This document shows positions 5,755 to 63,761 of a stretch of DNA of 64,000 nt, one piece after another (positions within the stretch are counted from its first letter, which is position 1; the number at the start of each line of letters is the position of its first letter). Both the position numbers and the translations under genes were made by a program. The DNA is from Spirochaetia bacterium. GTDB lineage: Bacteria; Patescibacteriota; Microgenomatia; UBA1400; MFAQ01. The stretch spans positions 1,009 to 65,008 of the forward strand of contig DATIKJ010000051.1 in NCBI GenBank assembly GCA_035477615.1, read 5' to 3'. The notes under the pieces are model-generated. The model worked only from the letters and a program-made list of their open reading frames with translations, made no database searches and had not been told where the DNA came from.

Positions 5755-5947
5755 ATTGATTTAACAAATTAAAACCCCTCACTTAAACCTCGATAATTAA
5801 TCTTAGCTTAAGTCAGGGGTTCTTGAGAGAACGGTACCACCCTTCCATACTCTTTGTGCTATTACGGGCTACCCCGATGAATTTCTTCACTTGCTCCGAA
5901 GATCGCGACTCTTCATCAACGCTACTCATATTTTACTCCTAATACAT
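5755..5947 (-). promoter_or_regulatory. T-box-like antitermination leader of argS-lysS
   Basis: Minus strand contains AGGGTGGTACCG (12/12 match to T-box core AGGGUGGNACCG) in antiterminator arrangement: A1 (AAGGG / CCCT), 7-nt bulge TGGTACC, A2 hairpin GTTCT-ctca-AGAAC. A competing 14-bp terminator (AACCCCTCACTTAA / TTAAGTCAGGGGTT) plus TTTTAATTT ends about 10 nt before the argS ATG. Confidence 0.55.
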
Positions 5948-6928: not shown

Positions 6929-6931
6929 GAT

Positions 6932-7255
6932 TTACTTTACCGTCTTTTTAACCATCTCTTCGTAGATCTCTTTACCTCCAAAGCCCACCTGTCTTGCGAT
7001 CTCTTTACCTCCATCAAAAAGAACTACTGTCGGAATACTCATTACGCCATACTTTCCAGCTACACCAGGATTAGCATCAACGTCCACCTTACCTACAATC
7101 ATTTTTTCACCATAAGAATTTGCCAATTCTTCGATCACCGGAGACACCATTCTACATGGTCCGCACCAATCAGCAAAAAAATCTACTAGCACTGGCTTCT
7201 GTGCCTTCAGTACCATCTCGTCAAAATTTGCGTCGGTAAAATGTGCTATATCCAT
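6932..7255 (-). CDS. trxA: Thioredoxin
   Basis: 107 aa; WCGPC active site. Confidence 0.85.
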   Translation of the reverse strand: MDIAHFTDANFDEMVLKAQKPVLVDFFADWCGPCRMVSPVIEELANSYGEKMIVGKVDVDANPGVAGKYGVMSIPTVVLFDGGKEIARQVGFGGKEIYEEMVKKTVK

Positions 7256-7282
7256 ATTTTTTTATATATTTAATTAATATTT

Positions 7283-7510
7283 TTAAAGAAATCTCTTCAA
7301 TAGTTTAGTATATTCTTCTTTAGAACAACTACCAACCGCATCGGCCAATAGTGTTTTGGCAACACTCTTTAAAGAACTCATCGAAGCCACTACCTGTGTC
7401 ACAATCGCTTCACAATTTTTATCATCTCCCACCATCCGTTCAATTCCACCCACCTGGCCTTGAATTCTTTTAAGCATTACCTGCAGTTTCTTTTTTTCGT
7501 CTAATGACAT
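7283..7510 (-). CDS. CsoR/RcnR/FrmR-family metal- or stress-sensing repressor (DUF156)
   Basis: 75 aa; LKRIQGQVGGIERMV signature helix and conserved Cys (NCEAI, GSCSK) positions. Confidence 0.6.
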   Translation of the reverse strand: MSLDEKKKLQVMLKRIQGQVGGIERMVGDDKNCEAIVTQVVASMSSLKSVAKTLLADAVGSCSKEEYTKLLKRFL

Positions 7511-7548
7511 ATACCCCCCATGGTATATGAAAAATACCAGTAAGTCAA

Positions 7549-8470: not shown

Positions 8471-10276
8471 ATGACCAAGTTTTTTACCAACATCAAAGAA
8501 TTTTCCCAAACATACTCTTCCACAGTCAAAATCGCTTGGGAAACAGATCGTTCTGTTTTTCTCAAAATATCCCTTGCCAACGCCTTAAATGGTGCTCTTG
8601 TCTACCCAAGTCTTTTAATTGCCAAACTTCTCATAGACTCAGTCATGATCTCCATTACCACTCATGATATCTCCACTGGTATGAAAGGTATGATTATCGC
8701 CGCTATTTTGGGTCTTCTAGTTGACAGAGTACAACAAATACTTCAAGAAATTGATAATGTCTACAGCGGCCAACTTTCCAATCTAATTTCCGAAAAAATC
8801 CAAGTATCCATATCAAGAAAATTAAACTTATTACCTGTATCTACCGCCGAAGACCCAAACACCAGAAACATTCTCCAAAAGGTTATCGACAATGCTGGCC
8901 GTTCTGTCTGGTCACTTATTATTCCTATCTCCACCCTTCCCGAACTCCTTCTTACTATCATCTCTACCGCAATTCCAATTATTACCTTCCAACCTCTGAT
9001 TATCATTCCTAGTATTATTCTTGCTATTCCCAACATTATCATCGGTGTCGGTCATTCTAAAGCCCAACACGCTCTCTCCACCGAGTTCTCTCCCAAATGG
9101 CGTGTCTGGAGTGCTTTAGAAGACTTTGCCACAAAGGGGCGTTTCTTATATGAAAACAAAATTCTAAGTCATGTCGAGATTCTTCTCAGTCGCCGTTTCA
9201 AACTTGCCAAAGAAATATTCGGTCGTCGCCAAAAACTTGGTGCAAATTTTGCCAAAAAACGCCAAATTGCTTCTCTTCCTCTCTCTGTATTTGAAACCGG
9301 CACTAAACTCTATCTCTATTACTTAGCTATTACTCAGACACTTACTCTTGGTACCGCTCAAATAACAAGCAACGCCATCAACCAATTTATCTCAAGTATC
9401 AGTCGTCTAATAAGACAAGCCAACGACATCTTTCAAAACTATCTTTTCATTAATGACTATGAAACATTTATGGCTCTTCCAGAAGAAAACCAAACCAAAG
9501 GTATCCACTTCCCCGATAAAATCAATCAAGGCATTGAGTTTCAGCACGTCTATTTCAAATACCCCAAATCAAAAAACTGGATATTAAATGATGTCTCTTT
9601 CAAAATAGATCCCGCCGACAATCTTGCTATCGTTGGCCAAAACGGCGCTGGTAAAACTACCCTTATCAAACTTCTTTGTCGTTTTTACGAACCCCAAAAA
9701 GGAATAATCTTAATCAATGGTAAAAACATTAATGATTACAACATCAAAGAATACCGTTTTAAATTCTCTGCTCTTTTTCAAGACTTTGCCCAGTATCCTT
9801 TTTCTGTCGAAGATAATATTCGCTTTGGTGATATCTCTCAAAAAAGAAGTCTCCGTAAAATAAAACAAGCCGCCATGCTCACCGGCATCACCAACTTCAT
9901 AGAAATGCTTCCATTAAAATACCAGAATCCTCTAGATAAAGAATTTAAGGATGGCGTTGAACCATCAAAAGGTCTGTGGCAAAGAGTGGCATTAGCTCGC
10001 ATCCTTTACCGTCCTTCAGAATTTCTTATCCTCGATGAACCAACTTCCAACGTCGACCCTCAATCTGAAGAAGAAATTTTTGAACAAGTTCTAAAAATCG
10101 CCAAAGAAAAAATTATTTTCCTTGTATCTCATCGCTTCTCCACCGTAAGAAAAGCCGATAAAATCTTAGTTCTCGAACACGGCACCGTCGTCGAACACGG
10201 CACACACCATGAACTAATGGCCAAAAATGGTCGTTACAAAGAATTATTTGATATTCAAGCCGAGAGTTTCCGCTAG
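8471..10276 (+). CDS. ABC exporter, fused permease-ATPase, with degenerate signature motif
   Basis: 601 aa; N-terminal TMD, Walker A GQNGAGKTT, Walker B LILDEPTS, H-loop SHR; signature LSGGQ replaced by PSKGLWQ. Confidence 0.85.
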   Translation: MTKFFTNIKEFSQTYSSTVKIAWETDRSVFLKISLANALNGALVYPSLLIAKLLIDSVMISITTHDISTGMKGMIIAAILGLLVDRVQQILQEIDNVYSGQLSNLISEKIQVSISRKLNLLPVSTAEDPNTRNILQKVIDNAGRSVWSLIIPISTLPELLLTIISTAIPIITFQPLIIIPSIILAIPNIIIGVGHSKAQHALSTEFSPKWRVWSALEDFATKGRFLYENKILSHVEILLSRRFKLAKEIFGRRQKLGANFAKKRQIASLPLSVFETGTKLYLYYLAITQTLTLGTAQITSNAINQFISSISRLIRQANDIFQNYLFINDYETFMALPEENQTKGIHFPDKINQGIEFQHVYFKYPKSKNWILNDVSFKIDPADNLAIVGQNGAGKTTLIKLLCRFYEPQKGIILINGKNINDYNIKEYRFKFSALFQDFAQYPFSVEDNIRFGDISQKRSLRKIKQAAMLTGITNFIEMLPLKYQNPLDKEFKDGVEPSKGLWQRVALARILYRPSEFLILDEPTSNVDPQSEEEIFEQVLKIAKEKIIFLVSHRFSTVRKADKILVLEHGTVVEHGTHHELMAKNGRYKELFDIQAESFR

Positions 10277-10774
10277 CTCTTTAATTATCTCGTCAAATTC
10301 ATCGTCGAGTTCTTTTATCTCTTCCTTACTTAACTTAGATAATACATAGTCTGCCCCGGTTCCATAGCTAATCCCAGGTTCCCTGTTATCAATTCCAATT
10401 CGAACTCTCAAAAAATCTTTTCTTCCCAAATACTGTTCTACAGATTTCAAGCCATTATGAACTTTAGGACCTACTTCAGTCTGAATCTTATACTCACCAA
10501 AGGCAATGTCCAAGTCGTCATGTACTACTACTACCTGATCAATTACCATTTTATAAAATCCCATTATTTTCCGTACCGCCCTTCCTGACTCATTCATATA
10601 AGTACTCGGCTTTGCCAAAATCAACTCACCTCTTTTCAACACCTCAGCCTCTTGTTTCCGATCAAGCCCAAATTTTTCCTTCCCTGCAAGCTTATTAACA
10701 AACAAAAATCCTGCGTTATGTCGCGTTTTTTCGTAATCTTCACCTGAATTTCCCAGTCCAACAATTAAATACAT
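10244..10774 (-). CDS. pth: Peptidyl-tRNA hydrolase
   Basis: 176 aa; MYLIVGLGN..G..Y..TRHNAGF N-terminal signature. Confidence 0.9.
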   Translation of the reverse strand: MYLIVGLGNSGEDYEKTRHNAGFLFVNKLAGKEKFGLDRKQEAEVLKRGELILAKPSTYMNESGRAVRKIMGFYKMVIDQVVVVHDDLDIAFGEYKIQTEVGPKVHNGLKSVEQYLGRKDFLRVRIGIDNREPGISYGTGADYVLSKLSKEEIKELDDEFDEIIKELAETLGLNIK

Positions 10775-10793: not shown

Positions 10794-11660
10794 ATGAATA
10801 AAGAACCGTTTTTCTCCATTGTCATTCCTTGCCTAAACGAGGAAAAATCTCTGCCCTTGCTACTCAAAGACCTATCCAATCAAACTCTCCAAGACTTCGA
10901 AGTTGTTGTTATCGATGGCCACTCCAAAGACAAAACGGTTGAAAAAGCCAACTCCTTTAATAAAAAACTACCTTTTCTTTCCATTCACACAAGCAAAATC
11001 CGCAATGTTTCAGTTCAAAGAAACATGGGTGGAGAAAAAGCTCGTGGAAAATTTTTACTATTCAATGACGCCGACAACCGCCTCCCTAAACACTTTCTTG
11101 AAGGAGTTAAATACCACATAAGTGTCAAACCATCCGATATGTTTACCACCTGGTGCCTTCCCGACTCAAACCGTAGATCTGATAAAGTAATTGCAACCAA
11201 CCTTAACCTCCTTACCGAAACTGGTTTTCTTCTCGGAAATCCCGGAGCTCTTGGCGCTATGATTGGTTGTCGTCGAAAGATATTTGGCAAAATTGGTGGT
11301 TTTAATCCTGAAATTTCTTTTGCTGAAGATACTGAATTTATCAGACAAGGATATCGTAAGGGTTACTCTTTTTCTATCATTCATGAACCTCGCTATGTGT
11401 ATTCTTTAAGACGTTTTCGAAAAATTGGCACTCTTAAGCTTCTCCAAAAATATGCAGTTCTCCATCTAAAAATAATGACAGATCAAAAAATCGATCAAAA
11501 AAAAGAGTATCCCATGGGAGGCAGTTATCTCAAAAAAGCCAAAACTACTTCAGATTTCTTCAAAAATCTCCAGTCTGTCTTTATCAAAAAAGCCCCAAAA
11601 AAGAAAATATACGACCAACTCAAAGCCCTCCTTAGTCTAGAAGAAAGTAAGCCTAGTTAA
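10794..11660 (+). CDS. Family 2 glycosyltransferase
   Basis: 288 aa; FSIVIPCLNEE, DGHSKD, NDADN (DxD) motifs. Confidence 0.8.
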   Translation: MNKEPFFSIVIPCLNEEKSLPLLLKDLSNQTLQDFEVVVIDGHSKDKTVEKANSFNKKLPFLSIHTSKIRNVSVQRNMGGEKARGKFLLFNDADNRLPKHFLEGVKYHISVKPSDMFTTWCLPDSNRRSDKVIATNLNLLTETGFLLGNPGALGAMIGCRRKIFGKIGGFNPEISFAEDTEFIRQGYRKGYSFSIIHEPRYVYSLRRFRKIGTLKLLQKYAVLHLKIMTDQKIDQKKEYPMGGSYLKKAKTTSDFFKNLQSVFIKKAPKKKIYDQLKALLSLEESKPS

Positions 11661-12592
11661 GCAAACATAAACTGTAGCCCGATAAACATTAAATAAAAAC
11701 CAACCAATACAACTCCCTCCCATCTTTCCAGTTTTCGTTTTGACTTTGTAAAAAGCCAAAACAGACCTAAAATAATTACCAAAAACATTCCTGACAGACC
11801 TCGCTGCAATGACTCATGCATTACTATCGGAGTTATCAACGCTACCACTCCCAAAATCACTGTTGAGTTAATCACTACACTTCCCAGTAAATCAGGTAAA
11901 ACCAAACTCGCTCTATGCTTCTTACGAGAAAATGAAAGCAATAACAACTCTGGTAACGTAGTTCCGAAAGCAATCAGTATCAAACCCATCCAAAACCAAC
12001 TCACTCCCCACACTGCTGCAACTCCAACAGCAATTTGTACCAACTGCCAAGAACAAACAGACATAATAATTATCCCTAAAACTAACATAACTACCAAACC
12101 CCACCTTTCATGACTATTTATTTTCTTCTTTGATGATTTAATTACCATCTTTTCATTTGACAAATAGAAAGCATAAATAAAATACAACACTACCAAAATT
12201 CCACCTTCAATCCTCGAAATTACACCATCAAACAACATAGCAAACGGCATTAAAGAAATACCAACTGTCACCCACAAATCTCTTTTTAAATACTCTCCCA
12301 CAATCGGTATCACCGAAGCCAAAATCGCCAAACCTCCAATAATCAAACTCAAATTTGCCATACTGGCTCCCACTACCATCCCCAAAGCCATCTGTGGTTT
12401 TCCGTCCAAAGCTGCCGCAATTCCTACAAAAAGTTCTGGTAAGGCCAACGAAAAACCAACCAAAATCGAAATCACCCTATTTTTTTTGAATGGTAAATGA
12501 GAAACAAACCTTTCAAAAACATCCACCACCACTCCGGAAGACAAAACAATCAAAATCAAGAGTATCAATCCAACAAAAATATTCCAAACCAT
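11657..12592 (-). CDS. Ca2+/cation antiporter (CaCA/YrbG family)
   Basis: 311 aa; two alpha-repeats (LPELFVGIAA..., TTLPELLLL...GSVVINS). Confidence 0.75.
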   Translation of the reverse strand: MVWNIFVGLILLILIVLSSGVVVDVFERFVSHLPFKKNRVISILVGFSLALPELFVGIAAALDGKPQMALGMVVGASMANLSLIIGGLAILASVIPIVGEYLKRDLWVTVGISLMPFAMLFDGVISRIEGGILVVLYFIYAFYLSNEKMVIKSSKKKINSHERWGLVVMLVLGIIIMSVCSWQLVQIAVGVAAVWGVSWFWMGLILIAFGTTLPELLLLSFSRKKHRASLVLPDLLGSVVINSTVILGVVALITPIVMHESLQRGLSGMFLVIILGLFWLFTKSKRKLERWEGVVLVGFYLMFIGLQFMFA

Positions 12593-18611: not shown

Positions 18612-18731
18612 GTCTATATTCTAGCATCGTAATTAAGTGAACAAAGTGAATGAATTACGAGCGAATATAAGAGGAAGCGCAGGAATAACATTTCCATAAT
18701 GAATATTATGGAAAGGGTGACGAGCAAGCTC

Positions 18732-23810: not shown

Positions 23811-24902
<1,092 letters not shown>

Positions 24903-26779: not shown

Positions 26780-26783
26780 CTAG

Positions 26784-26857
26784 TGGGCCGACCAGGATTC
26801 GAACCTGGGACATCGAAGGTATAAGCTTCGCGCTCTAACCAGCTGAGCTATCGGCCC
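26784..26857 (-). tRNA. tRNA-Ile with UAU anticodon
   Basis: Minus strand GGGCCGA-TA-GCTC-AGCTGGTTA-GAGC-G-CGAAG-CTTATAC-CTTCG-ATGTC-CCAGG-TTCGAAT-CCTGG-TCGGCCC-A; D-arm identical in style to bacterial tRNA-Ile; anticodon positions 34-36 = TAT. Confidence 0.8.
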
Positions 26858-33346: not shown

Positions 33347-33350
33347 TATT

Positions 33351-33366
33351 TAGTGTCGGATATTAT
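33351..33366 (-). promoter_or_regulatory. NrdR box (operator)
   Basis: Minus-strand ACACTAAATATTGTGT, 15/16 match to consensus acaCwAtATaTwGtgt, located -22..-7 relative to nrdR ATG and just downstream of a TAATAT -10-like hexamer. Confidence 0.6.
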
Positions 33367-33454
33367 CATGTAACACTACCCCTAGTAATGCAACTGCCAC
33401 ATACCATATCACAAAACGTCATTAAGGCCAATCTCCGCAAATTCTTCTTCAATC

Positions 33455-33482
33455 CATACAAAAGGGCGGCTCTTCGCCGCCC
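33455..33482 (-). terminator. Intrinsic terminator (GGGCGGC-gaaga-GCCGCCC + TTTTGT) upstream of nrdR
   Basis: 7-bp GC stem, 5-nt loop, T-run on minus strand. Confidence 0.5.
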
Positions 33483-33489
33483 AAACAAC

Positions 33490-33546
33490 TTACTCTTCTC
33501 TTGGGGCAATCCACTCAGGCACTTCTTCAAGCATTATTGATAACAT
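33490..33546 (-). CDS. Candidate 18-aa sORF (MLSIMLEEVPEWIAPREE) with consensus SD
   Basis: AGGAGGT - 3 nt - ATG; stop 7 nt before the terminator hairpin. Confidence 0.2.
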   Translation of the reverse strand: MLSIMLEEVPEWIAPREE

Positions 33547-50331: not shown

Positions 50332-50628
50332 TCAAAATCCAAACTCAGCTTTCAGTTCGTCACTCATTAGATCTTTACTCCAGGGTGGATCCCAGACCAA
50401 CTCCACTATTAATTTCTTCACTTCCGGAACTCCTTTTAAAGCATCATTAATTTTTTTATCGATCACTGGTGCCAGAGGACATCCCGGACTTGTAAGAGTC
50501 ATCTCCACTTCCGCTTCACCTGCTTCATAACGCACGTCATAAATAAGTCCCAAATCCACAATCGACACACCAAGCTCTGGATCAATTACTTTTTTTAACG
50601 CCTCCCAAATTTTATCCTCCACCATCAT
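50332..50628 (-). CDS. Fe-S cluster assembly factor SufT / MIP18 (DUF59)
   Basis: 98 aa; VIDPELGVSIVDLGLIY...TLTSPGCP motif. Confidence 0.75.
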   Translation of the reverse strand: MMVEDKIWEALKKVIDPELGVSIVDLGLIYDVRYEAGEAEVEMTLTSPGCPLAPVIDKKINDALKGVPEVKKLIVELVWDPPWSKDLMSDELKAEFGF

Positions 50629-50819
50629 TTTTTCATTCTAAACTCTGCTTCGATCAATACAAACACTCCCCAAATAGCCGCTGTCAAACCAACCAACATC
50701 CACTGAGTACTCGCTAGCCAAAGATCAGTTCCCAAAGCTCCAATCAAAGCCAAAACTACACACACAATTGAAAAATATATTAAAGTTTTTCCCATCGCTA
50801 ATTTATCTTTACTTCTCAT
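50625..50819 (-). CDS. Small membrane protein (2 TM), unknown
   Basis: 64 aa, start-stop overlap with downstream gene. Confidence 0.35.
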   Translation of the reverse strand: MRSKDKLAMGKTLIYFSIVCVVLALIGALGTDLWLASTQWMLVGLTAAIWGVFVLIEAEFRMKK

Positions 50820-50835
50820 GCTTTCACCTCCCTTC

Positions 50836-51060
50836 TTATCTCGGCCACACGGTTTCTCCGGTTTCCGTATTAATAATTTTTATTGCTATCATCGGACAAG
50901 ACTGTGCTGCCAGAAGTTTTTCCTCGTCACTATTTCCGTCCTGATCAATCAATCCAACTTTCCCGTCAGTCCCAATTCTAAAAGTTAAATTTGCCAAATC
51001 TACACACGAACCGGAACCAATACACTTATTTTTATCAACTACCACTTTATACTTGGTCAT
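50836..51060 (-). CDS. Ferredoxin (single-cluster, CxxGxC...CP type)
   Basis: 74 aa from MTKYKVVVDKNKCIGSGSC...SCP; the longer ORF-track start would overlap the upstream gene. Confidence 0.7.
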   Translation of the reverse strand: MTKYKVVVDKNKCIGSGSCVDLANLTFRIGTDGKVGLIDQDGNSDEEKLLAAQSCPMIAIKIINTETGETVWPR

Positions 51061-51091
51061 TACTGGTTCATCGTTCATTACCATCAGTTTA

Positions 51092-59927: not shown

Positions 59928-61268
59928 TTAGATATCTATCTCATTATGCAACATCGGTGTATCAATTTTCACCCCAGGGAATTCTTGTCTCACCTTCTCT
60001 GCCAACACTAACCTCGGCAACTCTTCTCCATGAGTCAAAATTACATGAGACAAACCCTCCATTTTTCCAAGCCACGTCAATATCTGTCCCTGATCGGCGT
60101 GTGAACTCATTGTCTTAATCTCTTTTATTCTTGCTTTAACTGTAATCAAATTTCCCCAAATATTTACTGTGTCTGCTCCGTCTTTAATCTGTCGACCCAT
60201 TGTTCCATCAGCTTGATATCCCACAAAAACTAACTGTGTTTTAGGATCCCCCAAAAATGAAATTACATGATGAAGTACTCTACCGCCAGTCATCATGCCA
60301 CTTCCCGCCACAATTATCTTTGTTCCCATCAAATTTTTTATCTGTCTACTTTTTTCAATCGTGTCACAAAGCACCAAACTTGGAAAATCAAAAGGATCGT
60401 CTGTTTTTGCTTGAGTCTGTAGTTTTCGGTTATATAACTCTGGAAAATCTCTAAAAATCTCCGTCGCTTTTATAGCCATTGGACTATCCAAAAATACTGG
60501 CGTTTCTGCAGCCATCTTTCCCTGTTTTTTTAACTGATCAAATATATACAAAATCTCTTGAGATCTTTGCAAAGAAAAGGAGGGAATAATTACAGTTCCT
60601 TTTTCAGCTTCAGCTTCAGCAACAATTGCCGCTAGTTCTTCTACTTCATCTCGACTCTCATGTATCTCATCACCATAAGTTGATTCGACTATTGCCACAT
60701 CTGCTTTTTTTACCCAATGGGTCGGTTCCAATAAAGGTTCTGGTGTGTTTCCCAAATCTCCACTAAATGAGATTAATTTTCCACTTTTAACATCACGGAT
60801 AAGTACCGAGGCTGATCCTAAAATGTGACCTGCATCCAAAAGAGTCACCTCAAACTCACCTACCATAAAGGGCTTGTCATACTCAACCAGTTGTGACTGT
60901 TTCATTATTTTTTCCACATCTTCATCAGTAAAAAGTACCCCCTTAAGCTCTTCTTCTTTCGCAATCTTAGCTGAGTCATAAAGAACCAATTCAGTTAAAG
61001 CCTTTGTCGCCTCTGTCATAAAAATCGGACCTCTGAAACCATATTTCAGTAGTAATGGCAACCTTCCACAGTGATCTAGATGAGCATGGGTCAAAACAAC
61101 AGCCGTTAATTTATCAAAATCAATATCTGGCTTTATAGTGTTCAACCCTGTCTCTTCCAATTTTCCTTGAAACATGCCGTAATCAATCATTACTCCCGTC
61201 TTCTCTCCCGTAAGAAAGTAACACGAACCAGTAACCATGGAAGCTGCCCCTAAAAACTTTATTTTCAC
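59928..61268 (-). CDS. MBL-fold beta-CASP hydrolase (RNA-processing nuclease-like, CPSF73/RNase J-related)
   Basis: 446 aa; HAHLDHCG (HxHxDH) motif, beta-CASP motifs; GTG start. Confidence 0.8.
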   Translation of the reverse strand: MKIKFLGAASMVTGSCYFLTGEKTGVMIDYGMFQGKLEETGLNTIKPDIDFDKLTAVVLTHAHLDHCGRLPLLLKYGFRGPIFMTEATKALTELVLYDSAKIAKEEELKGVLFTDEDVEKIMKQSQLVEYDKPFMVGEFEVTLLDAGHILGSASVLIRDVKSGKLISFSGDLGNTPEPLLEPTHWVKKADVAIVESTYGDEIHESRDEVEELAAIVAEAEAEKGTVIIPSFSLQRSQEILYIFDQLKKQGKMAAETPVFLDSPMAIKATEIFRDFPELYNRKLQTQAKTDDPFDFPSLVLCDTIEKSRQIKNLMGTKIIVAGSGMMTGGRVLHHVISFLGDPKTQLVFVGYQADGTMGRQIKDGADTVNIWGNLITVKARIKEIKTMSSHADQGQILTWLGKMEGLSHVILTHGEELPRLVLAEKVRQEFPGVKIDTPMLHNEIDI

Positions 61269-61309
61269 TAATCCAGTTTATCAGACCTGCTTAATTGTTT
61301 TTTCAAACT

Positions 61310-61490
61310 TAAGACCGTAGTCTACTCCCTTTTCGACAGGGTTACGTAAAGTGCGTATGGCATGGTGTTGCTATGTGCAACCATACGCACTGCGTATCAA
61401 GAAATTTTCTCGCAGGAGAAAATATTCTGGCTGACGACAAAGGGTGTAGACGGCAGGTCAAGTGAGAAAAAAAGTTATCCCACTTTTGCT
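61310..61490 (+). ncRNA. Candidate structured RNA (sRNA or riboswitch-like leader) in divergent intergenic region
   Basis: Compositionally GC-rich in an AT-rich genome. Closing helix CCGTAGTCTAC / GTAGACGG encloses three hairpins (CCCT-tttcgac-AGGG; GTGCGTATGG-N20-CCATACGCAC; ATTTTCTC-gcag-GAGAAAAT). A terminal hairpin plus TTTTGC lies 20 nt before the ATG at 61502. Confidence 0.3.
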
Positions 61491-61501
61491 AGAATAAATC
61501 C

Positions 61502-62257
61502 ATGACTTGCCCTCACTGTACCTCACCTCTATCATTTATATCTATCGACACAACCGATGGTCAAACACAAACTATCAACGAATGTCTCAACTGTGGTGGT
61601 CACTTTATTCCTCCATACATAGCAAACTTTCTCTCTGTCGAAACTGCCAAAAATATTGACTCGGTTCTTCCAAAATCAAAGATTGTTCCTGCCACTCACC
61701 CTGTTTGTCCTCAGTGTGGTCAAGTCATGTCTAGTATTAAAGATGATGCTGTTCCTGAAACTGTCACTGTCTTCACCTGTCCCAACAATCACGGTGATTT
61801 CTTTCCCAAAGGCCAGTTATTAAGTTTCAAAAAAGCTCAACAGGCAAAAATTTATTACCACAAACTCTGGGGTATTCCTCTAAAATCTGCCTTTGCTATC
61901 ATCATTCCTCTTATTATTGCCTTTACTGCCATCTCTGTTATTCCAACAATTATTAAGCAAATCGGTACATCCCAAGAATCTCGTGTTAAAGCGGGCGATA
62001 TTCTTACTGCTCCCCTCATCACCCCTGTCTCTAGTACCCAAGTTCTTATTTCTTTCTCCACCAAAAATCCTGTCATTGCTTCTATCCGCTTTACCGAAGG
62101 ACTAGACAAAACCTTTACTCTTTCTGAAACAGCTCAGACCAACCATCTCCTTAGTGTTGACAGTCTAACTTCAGGTACACTCTATAAATATGTTATTACT
62201 CTAAATATTAGTGGTAAAACCACAACCACCAACGAATATACTTTTGCTACTCCTTAA
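61502..62257 (+). CDS. Zinc-ribbon membrane protein with C-terminal FN3-like domain, unknown
   Basis: 251 aa; two CxxC pairs (CPHC...CLNCGG; CPQCG...CPNNHG), one TM, beta-rich C-terminus. Confidence 0.5.
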   Translation: MTCPHCTSPLSFISIDTTDGQTQTINECLNCGGHFIPPYIANFLSVETAKNIDSVLPKSKIVPATHPVCPQCGQVMSSIKDDAVPETVTVFTCPNNHGDFFPKGQLLSFKKAQQAKIYYHKLWGIPLKSAFAIIIPLIIAFTAISVIPTIIKQIGTSQESRVKAGDILTAPLITPVSSTQVLISFSTKNPVIASIRFTEGLDKTFTLSETAQTNHLLSVDSLTSGTLYKYVITLNISGKTTTTNEYTFATP

Positions 62258-63017: not shown

Positions 63018-63761
63018 ATGCCCAAACGCATATTTAGCCCCTACGAGCTCAACCAGCTTCGCCAATGGATGCCCCATATCGATCCAGACTCCATCAGCAC
63101 TAATAAACCTGTTGAGTACCTTACTGGCCACACTGAGTTCTGCGGACTCGATTTCTTAGTTACCCACGACACTCTAATTCCCCGTCTCGAGTCTGAAGAA
63201 ATAGTCAATCTAGCCCTTCAATTTATTGATGATCATAATCTCAGCCACCCTGTAATTGCCGATATCGGTACTGGCTCTGGTTGTCTTGGTGTCTCACTTG
63301 CCGTCAAGCTCTCCAAACAACACTCTCCTTACTCCATCTTTCTCTCCGACATCTCTCCTCAAGCACTCAAAGTAGCCGATCTCAACACCCAAAAACTTCT
63401 TCACTCTCCCGAGAACATCTTTTTTATAGAGTCGAATCTTTTTGAAAATTTTCCCAATATCAAGTTTGATCTTATCCTTGCCAATCTTCCCTATATTCCT
63501 TCCCAAAACATCAAAGCTCTCGACTCTTCAGTCAAAGATTTCGAACCCAAAATGGCTTTAGATGGTGGTTCTAAAGGTAATCTTTTTATCAATGCCCTTC
63601 TTTCCAAACTTCCACAATTCCTCAATCGAGATGGTCAGGCCATACTTGAGATCAACGACACACACACCATAAATAGCTTTACCCTCCCAGCAGGAATCCA
63701 GCCAACTATACAAAAAGACTGTTTCAACAAATCCCGTTTTCTTGTATGTTCCTATTTATAG
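63018..63761 (+). CDS. prmC: Release factor glutamine N5-methyltransferase PrmC/HemK-like
   Basis: 247 aa; SAM-binding IADIGTGSGCLG, substrate motif NLPYIP (NPPY variant). Confidence 0.8.
   Translation: MPKRIFSPYELNQLRQWMPHIDPDSISTNKPVEYLTGHTEFCGLDFLVTHDTLIPRLESEEIVNLALQFIDDHNLSHPVIADIGTGSGCLGVSLAVKLSKQHSPYSIFLSDISPQALKVADLNTQKLLHSPENIFFIESNLFENFPNIKFDLILANLPYIPSQNIKALDSSVKDFEPKMALDGGSKGNLFINALLSKLPQFLNRDGQAILEINDTHTINSFTLPAGIQPTIQKDCFNKSRFLVCSYL

Follow-up and report, generated by a model that had tools for sequence, protein, structure and literature searches.

The 233-nt gap at positions 61269-61501 of the 64-kb window (the whole stretch of DNA that was analysed, 64,000 nucleotides), which separates two divergent genes, very probably holds a real, conserved structured RNA element. 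In our preferred reading, to which we assign a probability of roughly 0.55 on the strength of sequence comparisons, the element would be a stand-alone structured non-coding RNA of the + strand, about 175-186 nt long, lineage-restricted, dispensable and probably protein-binding. A preliminary description of the window had proposed a candidate structured RNA here, and the fold is indeed kept, with compensatory changes, in related genomes. The gap is flanked by a gene for a metallo-beta-lactamase/beta-CASP/RMMBL RNase and by one for a membrane protein with N-terminal zinc ribbons, a divergent pair that is kept throughout all relatives found.

The close relatives of both flanking genes are all Collierbacteria, Microgenomates or Woesebacteria, members of the CPR, whose cells are ultra-small. 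The zinc-ribbon protein (VLH94_04955) is identical to a MAG protein that NCBI labels 'Spirochaetia bacterium'; since every close relative of both flanking genes is from Collierbacteria/Microgenomates, the bin carrying the window is probably mislabelled as Spirochaetia. An exact-sequence look-up of the beta-CASP protein returned no record. Its best matches outside the CPR clade were to Polynucleobacter (35%) and to the archaeal Thermoplasmata and Methanosarcinaceae (31-33%), an unusual spread.

The gap folds far more stably than expected by chance. The + strand reached -77.8 kcal/mol (z = -5.8), with none of 200 dinucleotide shuffles as stable, and the - strand -77.9 kcal/mol (z = -6.5), again with no shuffle as stable. 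The window has 13 non-coding gaps that are 120 nt or longer. Ten of them were compared by folding, gaps 1775-2562, 6929-7548 and 50371-51091 being too long, and this was the only strongly structured one: against mononucleotide shuffles it gave z = -7.2 and -5.4. Modest values were obtained at 5755-5947 (-), 18612-18731 (+) and 33347-33500 (+), with z of -3.9 (the next best gap), -3.6 and -3.1, respectively. The region had been described as much higher than its surroundings in both GC and pairing potential. The pairing potential stands, but GC is barely raised (0.43-0.44 in the element region versus about 0.39-0.41 around it), and it is GC skew that changes, this gap being the only place in the window where it is positive. 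Elsewhere the + strand has negative skew whatever the orientation of the genes, and for this reason RNA folds of the - strand look more stable in most gaps.

The minimum free energy (MFE) fold is a long imperfect stem, or rod, capped by a three-way junction (Table 1). The closing helix noted previously is present, formed by GTCTACTCCCTTT at 61320-61332 with AAAGGGTGTAGAC at 61439-61451 (92% complementary), but its extent was underestimated, as the stem continues outward to 61292-61477. The GC-rich stem was also borne out, as a perfect 11-bp helix between 61350-61360 and 61381-61391. Three hairpins had been placed inside the closing helix; of these, the 11-bp stem and an 8-bp hairpin with a GCAG loop (61404-61411 paired with 61416-61423) exist, but they belong to two arms on the three-way junction. 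The unit of stem plus junction agrees with the earlier idea of an independent sRNA of about 180 nt: it spans 186 nt in the window and usually 180-186 nt in relatives, the shortest being 170 nt and the longest 224 nt.

Table 1. Features of the window at and beside the gap. Paired strands and loops are written as DNA.
Feature	Position	Strand	Remarks
Metallo-beta-lactamase/beta-CASP/RMMBL RNase gene	59928-61268	-	446 aa; left of gap
Extended -10 of beta-CASP gene	61269-61283	-	TGA-TAAACT, reverse complement of 61275-61283; 6-nt spacer to GTG 61268; outside RNA; inferred from consensus
Whole element, rod plus three-way junction cap	61292-61477	+	186 nt; MFE fold with both promoter boxes masked; unmasked fold identical
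Outer arms of closing stem	61298-61310 with 61460-61472	+	TTTTTTCAAACTT with AAGTGAGAAAAAA; 85% complementary
Core (P0, internal loop, P1, junction, P2, P3)	61311-61462	+	covariance model R1 match 61311-61460
P0, 5' strand	61313-61316	+	GACC; read from sequence
Internal loop, 5' side	61317-61319	+	GTA; read from sequence
P1, 5' strand	61320-61339	+	GTCTAC-T-CCCTTT plus junction-proximal TCGACAG; pairs with 61431-61451
Arm P2	61343-61396	+	P2a TACG/CGTA; P2b GTGCGTATG/CATACGCAC; inverted repeat I4
P2 bulge	61360-61366	+	GCATGGT, 7 nt
P2 apical hairpin		+	GTTGC-TATGT-GCAAC
Arm P3	61400-61428	+	AGAA-ATTTTCTC, loop GCAG 61412-61415, GAGAAAAT-A-TTCT; inverted repeat I7
P1, 3' strand, and what follows	61431-61459	+	CTGACGA-C-AAAGGG-T-GTAGAC, then GGCA, GGTC
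Internal loop, 3' side	61452-61455	+	GGCA
P0, 3' strand	61456-61459	+	GGTC
Supposed terminator hairpin	61460-61485	+	AAGTGAGA...TCCCACTT; judged non-functional
Extended -10 of zinc-ribbon gene	61487-61501	+	TGC-TAGAAT 61487-61495 plus 6-nt spacer to ATG 61502; outside RNA
Membrane protein gene, N-terminal zinc ribbons	61502-62257	+	251 aa; right of gap

Syntenic relatives were collected by a genome scan with the beta-CASP protein (9 loci), a scan of metagenomes that used a zinc-ribbon protein alignment (58 further loci) and exact-protein look-ups (10 more). Their gaps fall into two length classes, 34-81 nt at most loci, which are empty, versus 243-256 nt at a minority; most relatives lack the element or have remnants only, and in empty sites the start codons of the two divergent genes lie only about 41 nt apart. 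The core measured 151-157 nt in all nine full-length elements, and each of the nine has as its own MFE fold a closing stem with a three-way junction. Elements of two subtypes were distinguished, with 50-58% identity between subtypes and 55% between the window and the other A-types. The A-type comprises the window and loci L004, L005 and L124, with partial copies in L091 and L263; the B-type comprises L101 (= L008), L087, L090, L096 and L099 (= L100), with a partial copy in L267. More distant forms occupy the same site in L123 (9754-10000), L133 (5070-5315) and L116 (2612-2787) and, separately, in L261 (598-865). A covariance model (R1) built from the nine full-length sequences scored the window core at 90.4 bits (E = 3e-20) and missed these four, so that they are only possible homologues of the A- and B-types. 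The distant forms, from more distant or sister lineages, are rod-shaped, and one of them has TATAAT at the stem base and a CCGCC-GCAG-GCGGG hairpin.

Comparison with homologous intergenic regions, a check that the preliminary description had suggested, showed strong covariation. In all, 79-82% of cells form a standard pair, against 34-50% in controls slid by 1-3 columns: 79.3% versus 34-50% in an alignment made with MAFFT only, where 35 of 56 pairs carry double-sided changes, and 81.9% versus 35-49% in a model-fitted alignment, where 36 of 54 do. On either alignment, none of 500 shuffles reached the observed pairing, the double-change counts or the covariation score. Helices 3-5, in arm P2, covary; pairs in P3 are changed on both sides in 10 of 12 cases (model-fitted) or 12 of 14 (MAFFT only); and the P1 helix is retained despite changed sequence in L004, L005, L124 and the B-type loci. 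Because realignment to the covariance model left some A-type rows misaligned in P1, structures were also curated by hand. Across the nine sequences these contain 470 Watson-Crick pairs (94.8%), 20 G·U, 1 A·C and 5 others.

Sequence conservation is seen in the single-stranded bulge and loop. A 7-nt P2 bulge of the form GCNNGGY is found in every homologue of both subtypes, and the P3 cap C-GCAG-G is invariant in nine of ten aligned sequences (loop variants are GCCG in L099, GCAA in L267 and GCUG in L095). Both subtypes also share an asymmetric internal loop low in the stem, which in the window (GUA/GGCA) is identical to that of L004 and reads GAA/GACA in L005. The P3b stem is hypervariable yet always compensated (CCGGACUC, UCAGAUUC, UUGUCGCU, CCGGCUUC, AUUUUCUC, UCCCGCC, GUUUCGC, GAAUUGC). 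The junction strands, only 0-6 nt long, read GGU...UAAA in the window, UA...GCAAA in L004 and GC...CAG in the B-type, and differ in length as well between A- and B-types. In most of the nine elements 12-14 bp separate the P3 loop from the junction, so that it is level with the P2 bulge (P3 of L005 has only 10 canonical pairs), and in L099 both the loop and the bulge are altered. The matched height, together with the changes in L099, suggests a loop-receptor contact.

Several observations indicate that the element is likely read on the + strand. The + strand fold is more stable than that of the - strand in nine of nine elements, by 2-16 kcal/mol, and G·U pairs outnumber A·C 20:1 in the curated helices, a ratio in which the G·U pairs represent fewer independent events than counted because the B-type sequences are closely related. 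Local skew, too, is G-rich on the + strand. The core of the window contains no G·U pair, and no strict TAnnnT box is found at its stem base; the strand and promoter of this copy are consequently assigned from the relatives, the fold energy and the GC skew. The same data bear on a - strand RNA, such as one that serves the beta-CASP RNase gene as a 5' leader or an antisense RNA, acting, for example, in autoregulation like that of an RNase E leader. The good - strand fold and the neighbouring gene for an RNA-processing enzyme are in line with that proposal, but each of the 20 G·U pairs would be an A·C mismatch in a - strand transcript, the - strand is the less stable in all nine elements, and a conserved TGnTAAACT box of its own lies 6 nt ahead of the beta-CASP start codon. 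We regard it as highly improbable.

It also seems very unlikely that the element acts purely as DNA, any RNA being incidental, as an inverted repeat or cruciform that would keep the two promoters apart, insulate them or provide them with AT-rich upstream elements. The position of the element would suit such a role, exactly between two -10 boxes that are about 20 bp apart in empty sites, as would AT-rich arms about 40-50 bp upstream of each outward-facing promoter and the nearly equal folding of the window copy on both strands. However, G·U is tolerated and A·C is not (20:1), the + strand is the more stable in nine of nine elements, the single-stranded bulge and loop are conserved in sequence, and the arms of the branched cap match in height; a spacer would require none of this.

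The sequences on either side of the element would place it outside both flanking transcripts. In the window, TAnn[A/T]T occurs exactly 5-6 nt before the ATG in 15 of 54 long open reading frames, against about one at other offsets, while a Shine-Dalgarno-like core precedes only 2 of the 54; together these figures make leaderless transcription the norm in this genome (examples of the signature are at 63018, 42922, 11657-12592 (-) and 10244-10774 (-)). In all 56 syntenic loci, both with and without the element, the zinc-ribbon gene has TAnnnT 5-7 nt before its ATG, and in 51 of these the box carries the TGn extension (consensus TGnTAnAAT); CAGTTTA(T/C)CAGA adjoins the beta-CASP start codon in most syntenic loci read, with small variants as in L005. 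The two -10 boxes are mirror images of one another, back-to-back and, in empty sites, nearly overlapping at about 20 bp apart. The zinc-ribbon and beta-CASP mRNAs therefore appear from their upstream sequences to be leaderless, and because both boxes lie about 6 nt from the start codons, the element would be upstream of both promoters and outside their 5' UTRs.

The terminator attributed to the element did not hold up. The hairpin concerned has a stability of -4.6 kcal/mol and a z of -0.3, no better than shuffles; nothing was called there by a terminator scan; a counterpart was absent from the four homologous loci tested (L101, L004, L005 and L124); and the hairpin competes with the outer closing stem. 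As for the TTTTGC taken to be its tail, the TTTGC belongs to the conserved extended -10 box TGCTAGAAT at 61487-61495.

These results remove the basis for the earlier suggestion of a riboswitch or attenuator expression platform: the terminator fails, every one of the 56 loci has an ATG-proximal promoter, the element is missing from most relatives, and the junctions differ between subtypes. Rather than sitting in a 5' UTR, as a riboswitch does, the element lies upstream of the ATG-proximal promoter; it has neither a conserved terminator or anti-terminator nor conserved sequestration of a start site; and instead of a conserved junction or ligand pocket, all that the subtypes have in common is the P2 bulge and the P3 loop. 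For a cis-regulatory leader, whether riboswitch-like or attenuating, there would now have to be a second, upstream promoter that yields a long zinc-ribbon mRNA with a structured 5' region of about 200 nt. We consider this possible though unlikely. The orientation of the element matches that of the zinc-ribbon gene in every locus, its compact three-way junction with matched arms is aptamer-like in architecture, and the B-type junctions are almost invariant; moreover, since no conserved terminator separates the element from the zinc-ribbon gene, read-through into that gene could occur. On the other hand, the zinc-ribbon gene keeps its extended -10 box 5-7 nt before the ATG with the element or without it, the junction strands of A- and B-types differ in both sequence and length, and no conserved pairing of the element with the zinc-ribbon start region was found, repeats I1 and I8 being specific to the window. 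Nor did any Rfam riboswitch match the gaps of six loci at E values up to 10. Where leaderless transcription rules, a structured RNA upstream of a gene does not by itself amount to a riboswitch.

The preferred reading, a stand-alone RNA, would have transcription start from a -10-like box overlapping the stem base. Strict TAnnnT boxes occur there in L005 (TAGAAT), L123 (TATAAT), L101 and L090 (TATTAT), L099 (TAATAT) and L124 (TATCAT). The number of elements with a TAnnnT overlapping the stem base is eight if the L262 remnant and weak boxes (TATTTT in L087, for example) are included, although in sequence this AT-rich chance matches are likely. The window, L004, L096 and L116 have none at the stem base, and in L261 the one box, TATTTT, is weak. 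Similar -10-like boxes also arise on the - strand from the inverted-repeat ends.

The element is a single-copy feature. Searched with filters off, the 64-kb window yields one R1 match, and the 748 kb of related DNA yields one per carrier locus, always in the same gap and in the same orientation, so that the multiple dispersed copies typical of MITE-like repeats are absent from both. It has been lost or has decayed repeatedly, and is absent or a remnant in most Collierbacteria-like relatives. Remnants carry internal deletions: L262 retains the stem and internal loop only, L095 the 3' half only, and L088 the ends only. Loss by internal deletion therefore appears frequent, and such frequent loss argues that the element is dispensable. 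In trees of the flanking proteins, which are star-like and poorly resolved, loci of A-type, B-type, remnant and empty form are mixed with one another, which counts against a simple vertical history.

This pattern could also be expected of a selfish or decaying insertion, a MITE-like palindrome or site-specific hitchhiker that owes its structure to an inverted-repeat origin and has no function for the host. Patchy presence, with subtypes, variants and empty sites interspersed in the host tree, would fit such an insertion, as would the internally deleted remnants in L262, L088 and L095, the AT-rich inverted-repeat ends, other small palindromic repeats in the same gap of L009, L115, L136 and L137, and the closer resemblance of B-type elements to one another than of their host genes. 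The ends, however, covary as part of the stem (L096 versus the others), the element is single-copy with a constant site and orientation, and no target-site duplication or direct repeat was seen at the boundaries between filled and empty sites. The compensated P3b, the invariant bulge and loop and the 20:1 ratio of G·U to A·C point to selection on an RNA fold rather than on a DNA palindrome. B-type cores are 76-92% identical while the DNA of the adjacent genes is 70-75% identical, and the gap sequence immediately outside the element is unalignable among B-type loci; this combination argues for purifying selection and against recent block transfer. A selfish origin is accordingly quite doubtful.

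The other palindromic repeats differ from the element. One, reading CGTCATTGCGAGGAACGTAGTGACGCGGCAATCTA, is found in L009 (about 1915-1991), L115 (about 9900-10000, tandemly doubled) and L137 (about 900-969), and another, CGTCATTCCCGCGCAGGCGGGAATCTA, in L136 (about 9720-9760), which suggests that the gap site tolerates or attracts small hairpin insertions. Four independent metagenome contigs, those of L091, L263, L267 and L260, end inside or right beside the element, perhaps because strains differ in whether they carry it, or because the long hairpin is hard to assemble.

The failure of the preliminary description to match the element to a known class was upheld by a covariance-model scan against Rfam 15. 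At E values up to 10, the gaps of the window, L101, L123, L261, L004 and L005 gave only chance matches of 8-20 bits to unrelated families, and no description of the element was found in the literature. A tRNA- or tmRNA-like origin was rejected, as ARAGORN calls nothing in the gaps. The CUGACGA at 61431-61437 recalls a hammerhead, but homologues do not conserve it and the topology of the strands is wrong for one; canonical K-turn and sarcin-ricin patterns likewise do not fit the internal loop by eye. Pattern scans of IMG/VR for a viral origin returned one chance match inside a coding region (L139) and a non-specific set. A small conserved open reading frame was also discounted: indels between B-type members disrupt the frames within the element, and one JGI contig has a 62-aa frame that overlaps the zinc-ribbon start.

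Resemblances to three known systems were considered. Like the three-way junctions of GEMM-I, which have a tetraloop-receptor contact, the element has a closing stem with two side-by-side hairpins, together with a GNRA-like tetraloop (GCAG; GCAA in L267) and an asymmetric bulge level with it, 12-14 bp away from the junction; the segment GCGCAAAGCC of A-type members may also resemble a GEMM-I segment. In contrast to the c-di-GMP-I (GEMM-I) riboswitch, it has no match to RF01051 in six loci, its tetraloop is on the 3' arm and its bulge on the 5' arm (in GEMM-I the GNRA loop is on the 5' hairpin and the receptor on the 3' one), its junction nucleotides vary by subtype, and it lies outside the 5' UTR and has no expression platform. 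With 6S RNA it shares a size of about 180-190 nt, a long irregular closing stem, a probable stand-alone nature and fast sequence change with conserved shape. 6S RNA, however, has a large central bubble that mimics an open promoter, with long stems on either side. The element has no large open central bubble but a tight junction with strands of 0-6 nt, and it carries a conserved P3 arm of 30-40 nt with a conserved loop, is missing from most close relatives and has no Rfam 6S match. MITE, Correia, ERIC and REP repeats are similar in their inverted-repeat ends, long hairpin, intergenic position and presence/absence among related genomes, but differ from the element, which is single-copy at a fixed site and orientation, has no target-site duplication, and shows strong covariation and a G·U bias.

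The element is best filed as a new orphan structured non-coding RNA family of CPR bacteria, a familiar general kind. Orphan structured motifs of bacteria have been found by comparative genomics, among them raiA and the motif sets of Weinberg et al. (2010, 2017; PMC2864571, PMC5737381). Like these, the element is about 150-190 nt long, supported by covariation, limited to one lineage, intergenic and without an associated protein domain; unlike them, it is tied to one syntenic site between back-to-back leaderless promoters and exists as several subtypes with decayed remnants. Its novelty lies in the fold, in the uncommon fixed site that it occupies and in how clearly its diversification and decay can be traced.

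The stand-alone RNA that we favour would work as follows. An imperfect closing stem of about 45 bp, interrupted by the asymmetric internal loop, leads to the three-way junction and its two arms of matched height, and these arms would be kept parallel by docking of the P3 loop on the P2 bulge. Because the junction lacks a conserved pocket, we favour protein binding or scaffolding over ligand sensing or catalysis, and the RNA may act as a dispensable protein-binding scaffold rather than as a ligand-sensing leader. Candidate partners, by adjacency only, would be the adjacent zinc-finger membrane protein and the beta-CASP RNase. We also see a slim chance that the element represents an undescribed, CPR-specific class of compact tertiary-folded RNA, with the near-invariant B-type core serving as a trans-acting sensor, a ribozyme or a dedicated partner of the adjacent zinc-finger protein or beta-CASP nuclease, and that it may spread site-specifically; such spread, if true, would explain both the interspersed subtypes and the B-type cores that are more conserved than the genes beside them.

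The genomes of CPR bacteria are tiny, and hardly any regulatory RNA has been characterised in them. An element under stronger constraint than its neighbouring genes in some lineages and repeatedly deleted in others is a clean candidate for a lineage-specific RNA function. Its location between overlapping leaderless promoters is unusual, and filled and empty sites offer a natural comparison of promoter behaviour.

At gathering thresholds, a scan of the whole window against the 4227 families of Rfam 15 reported two tRNAs only. One is a tRNA-Met (CAT) at 24828-24902. The other is a tRNA-Ile with anticodon TAT (UAU) at 26783-26857 (-), an uncommon bacterial way of reading AUA.
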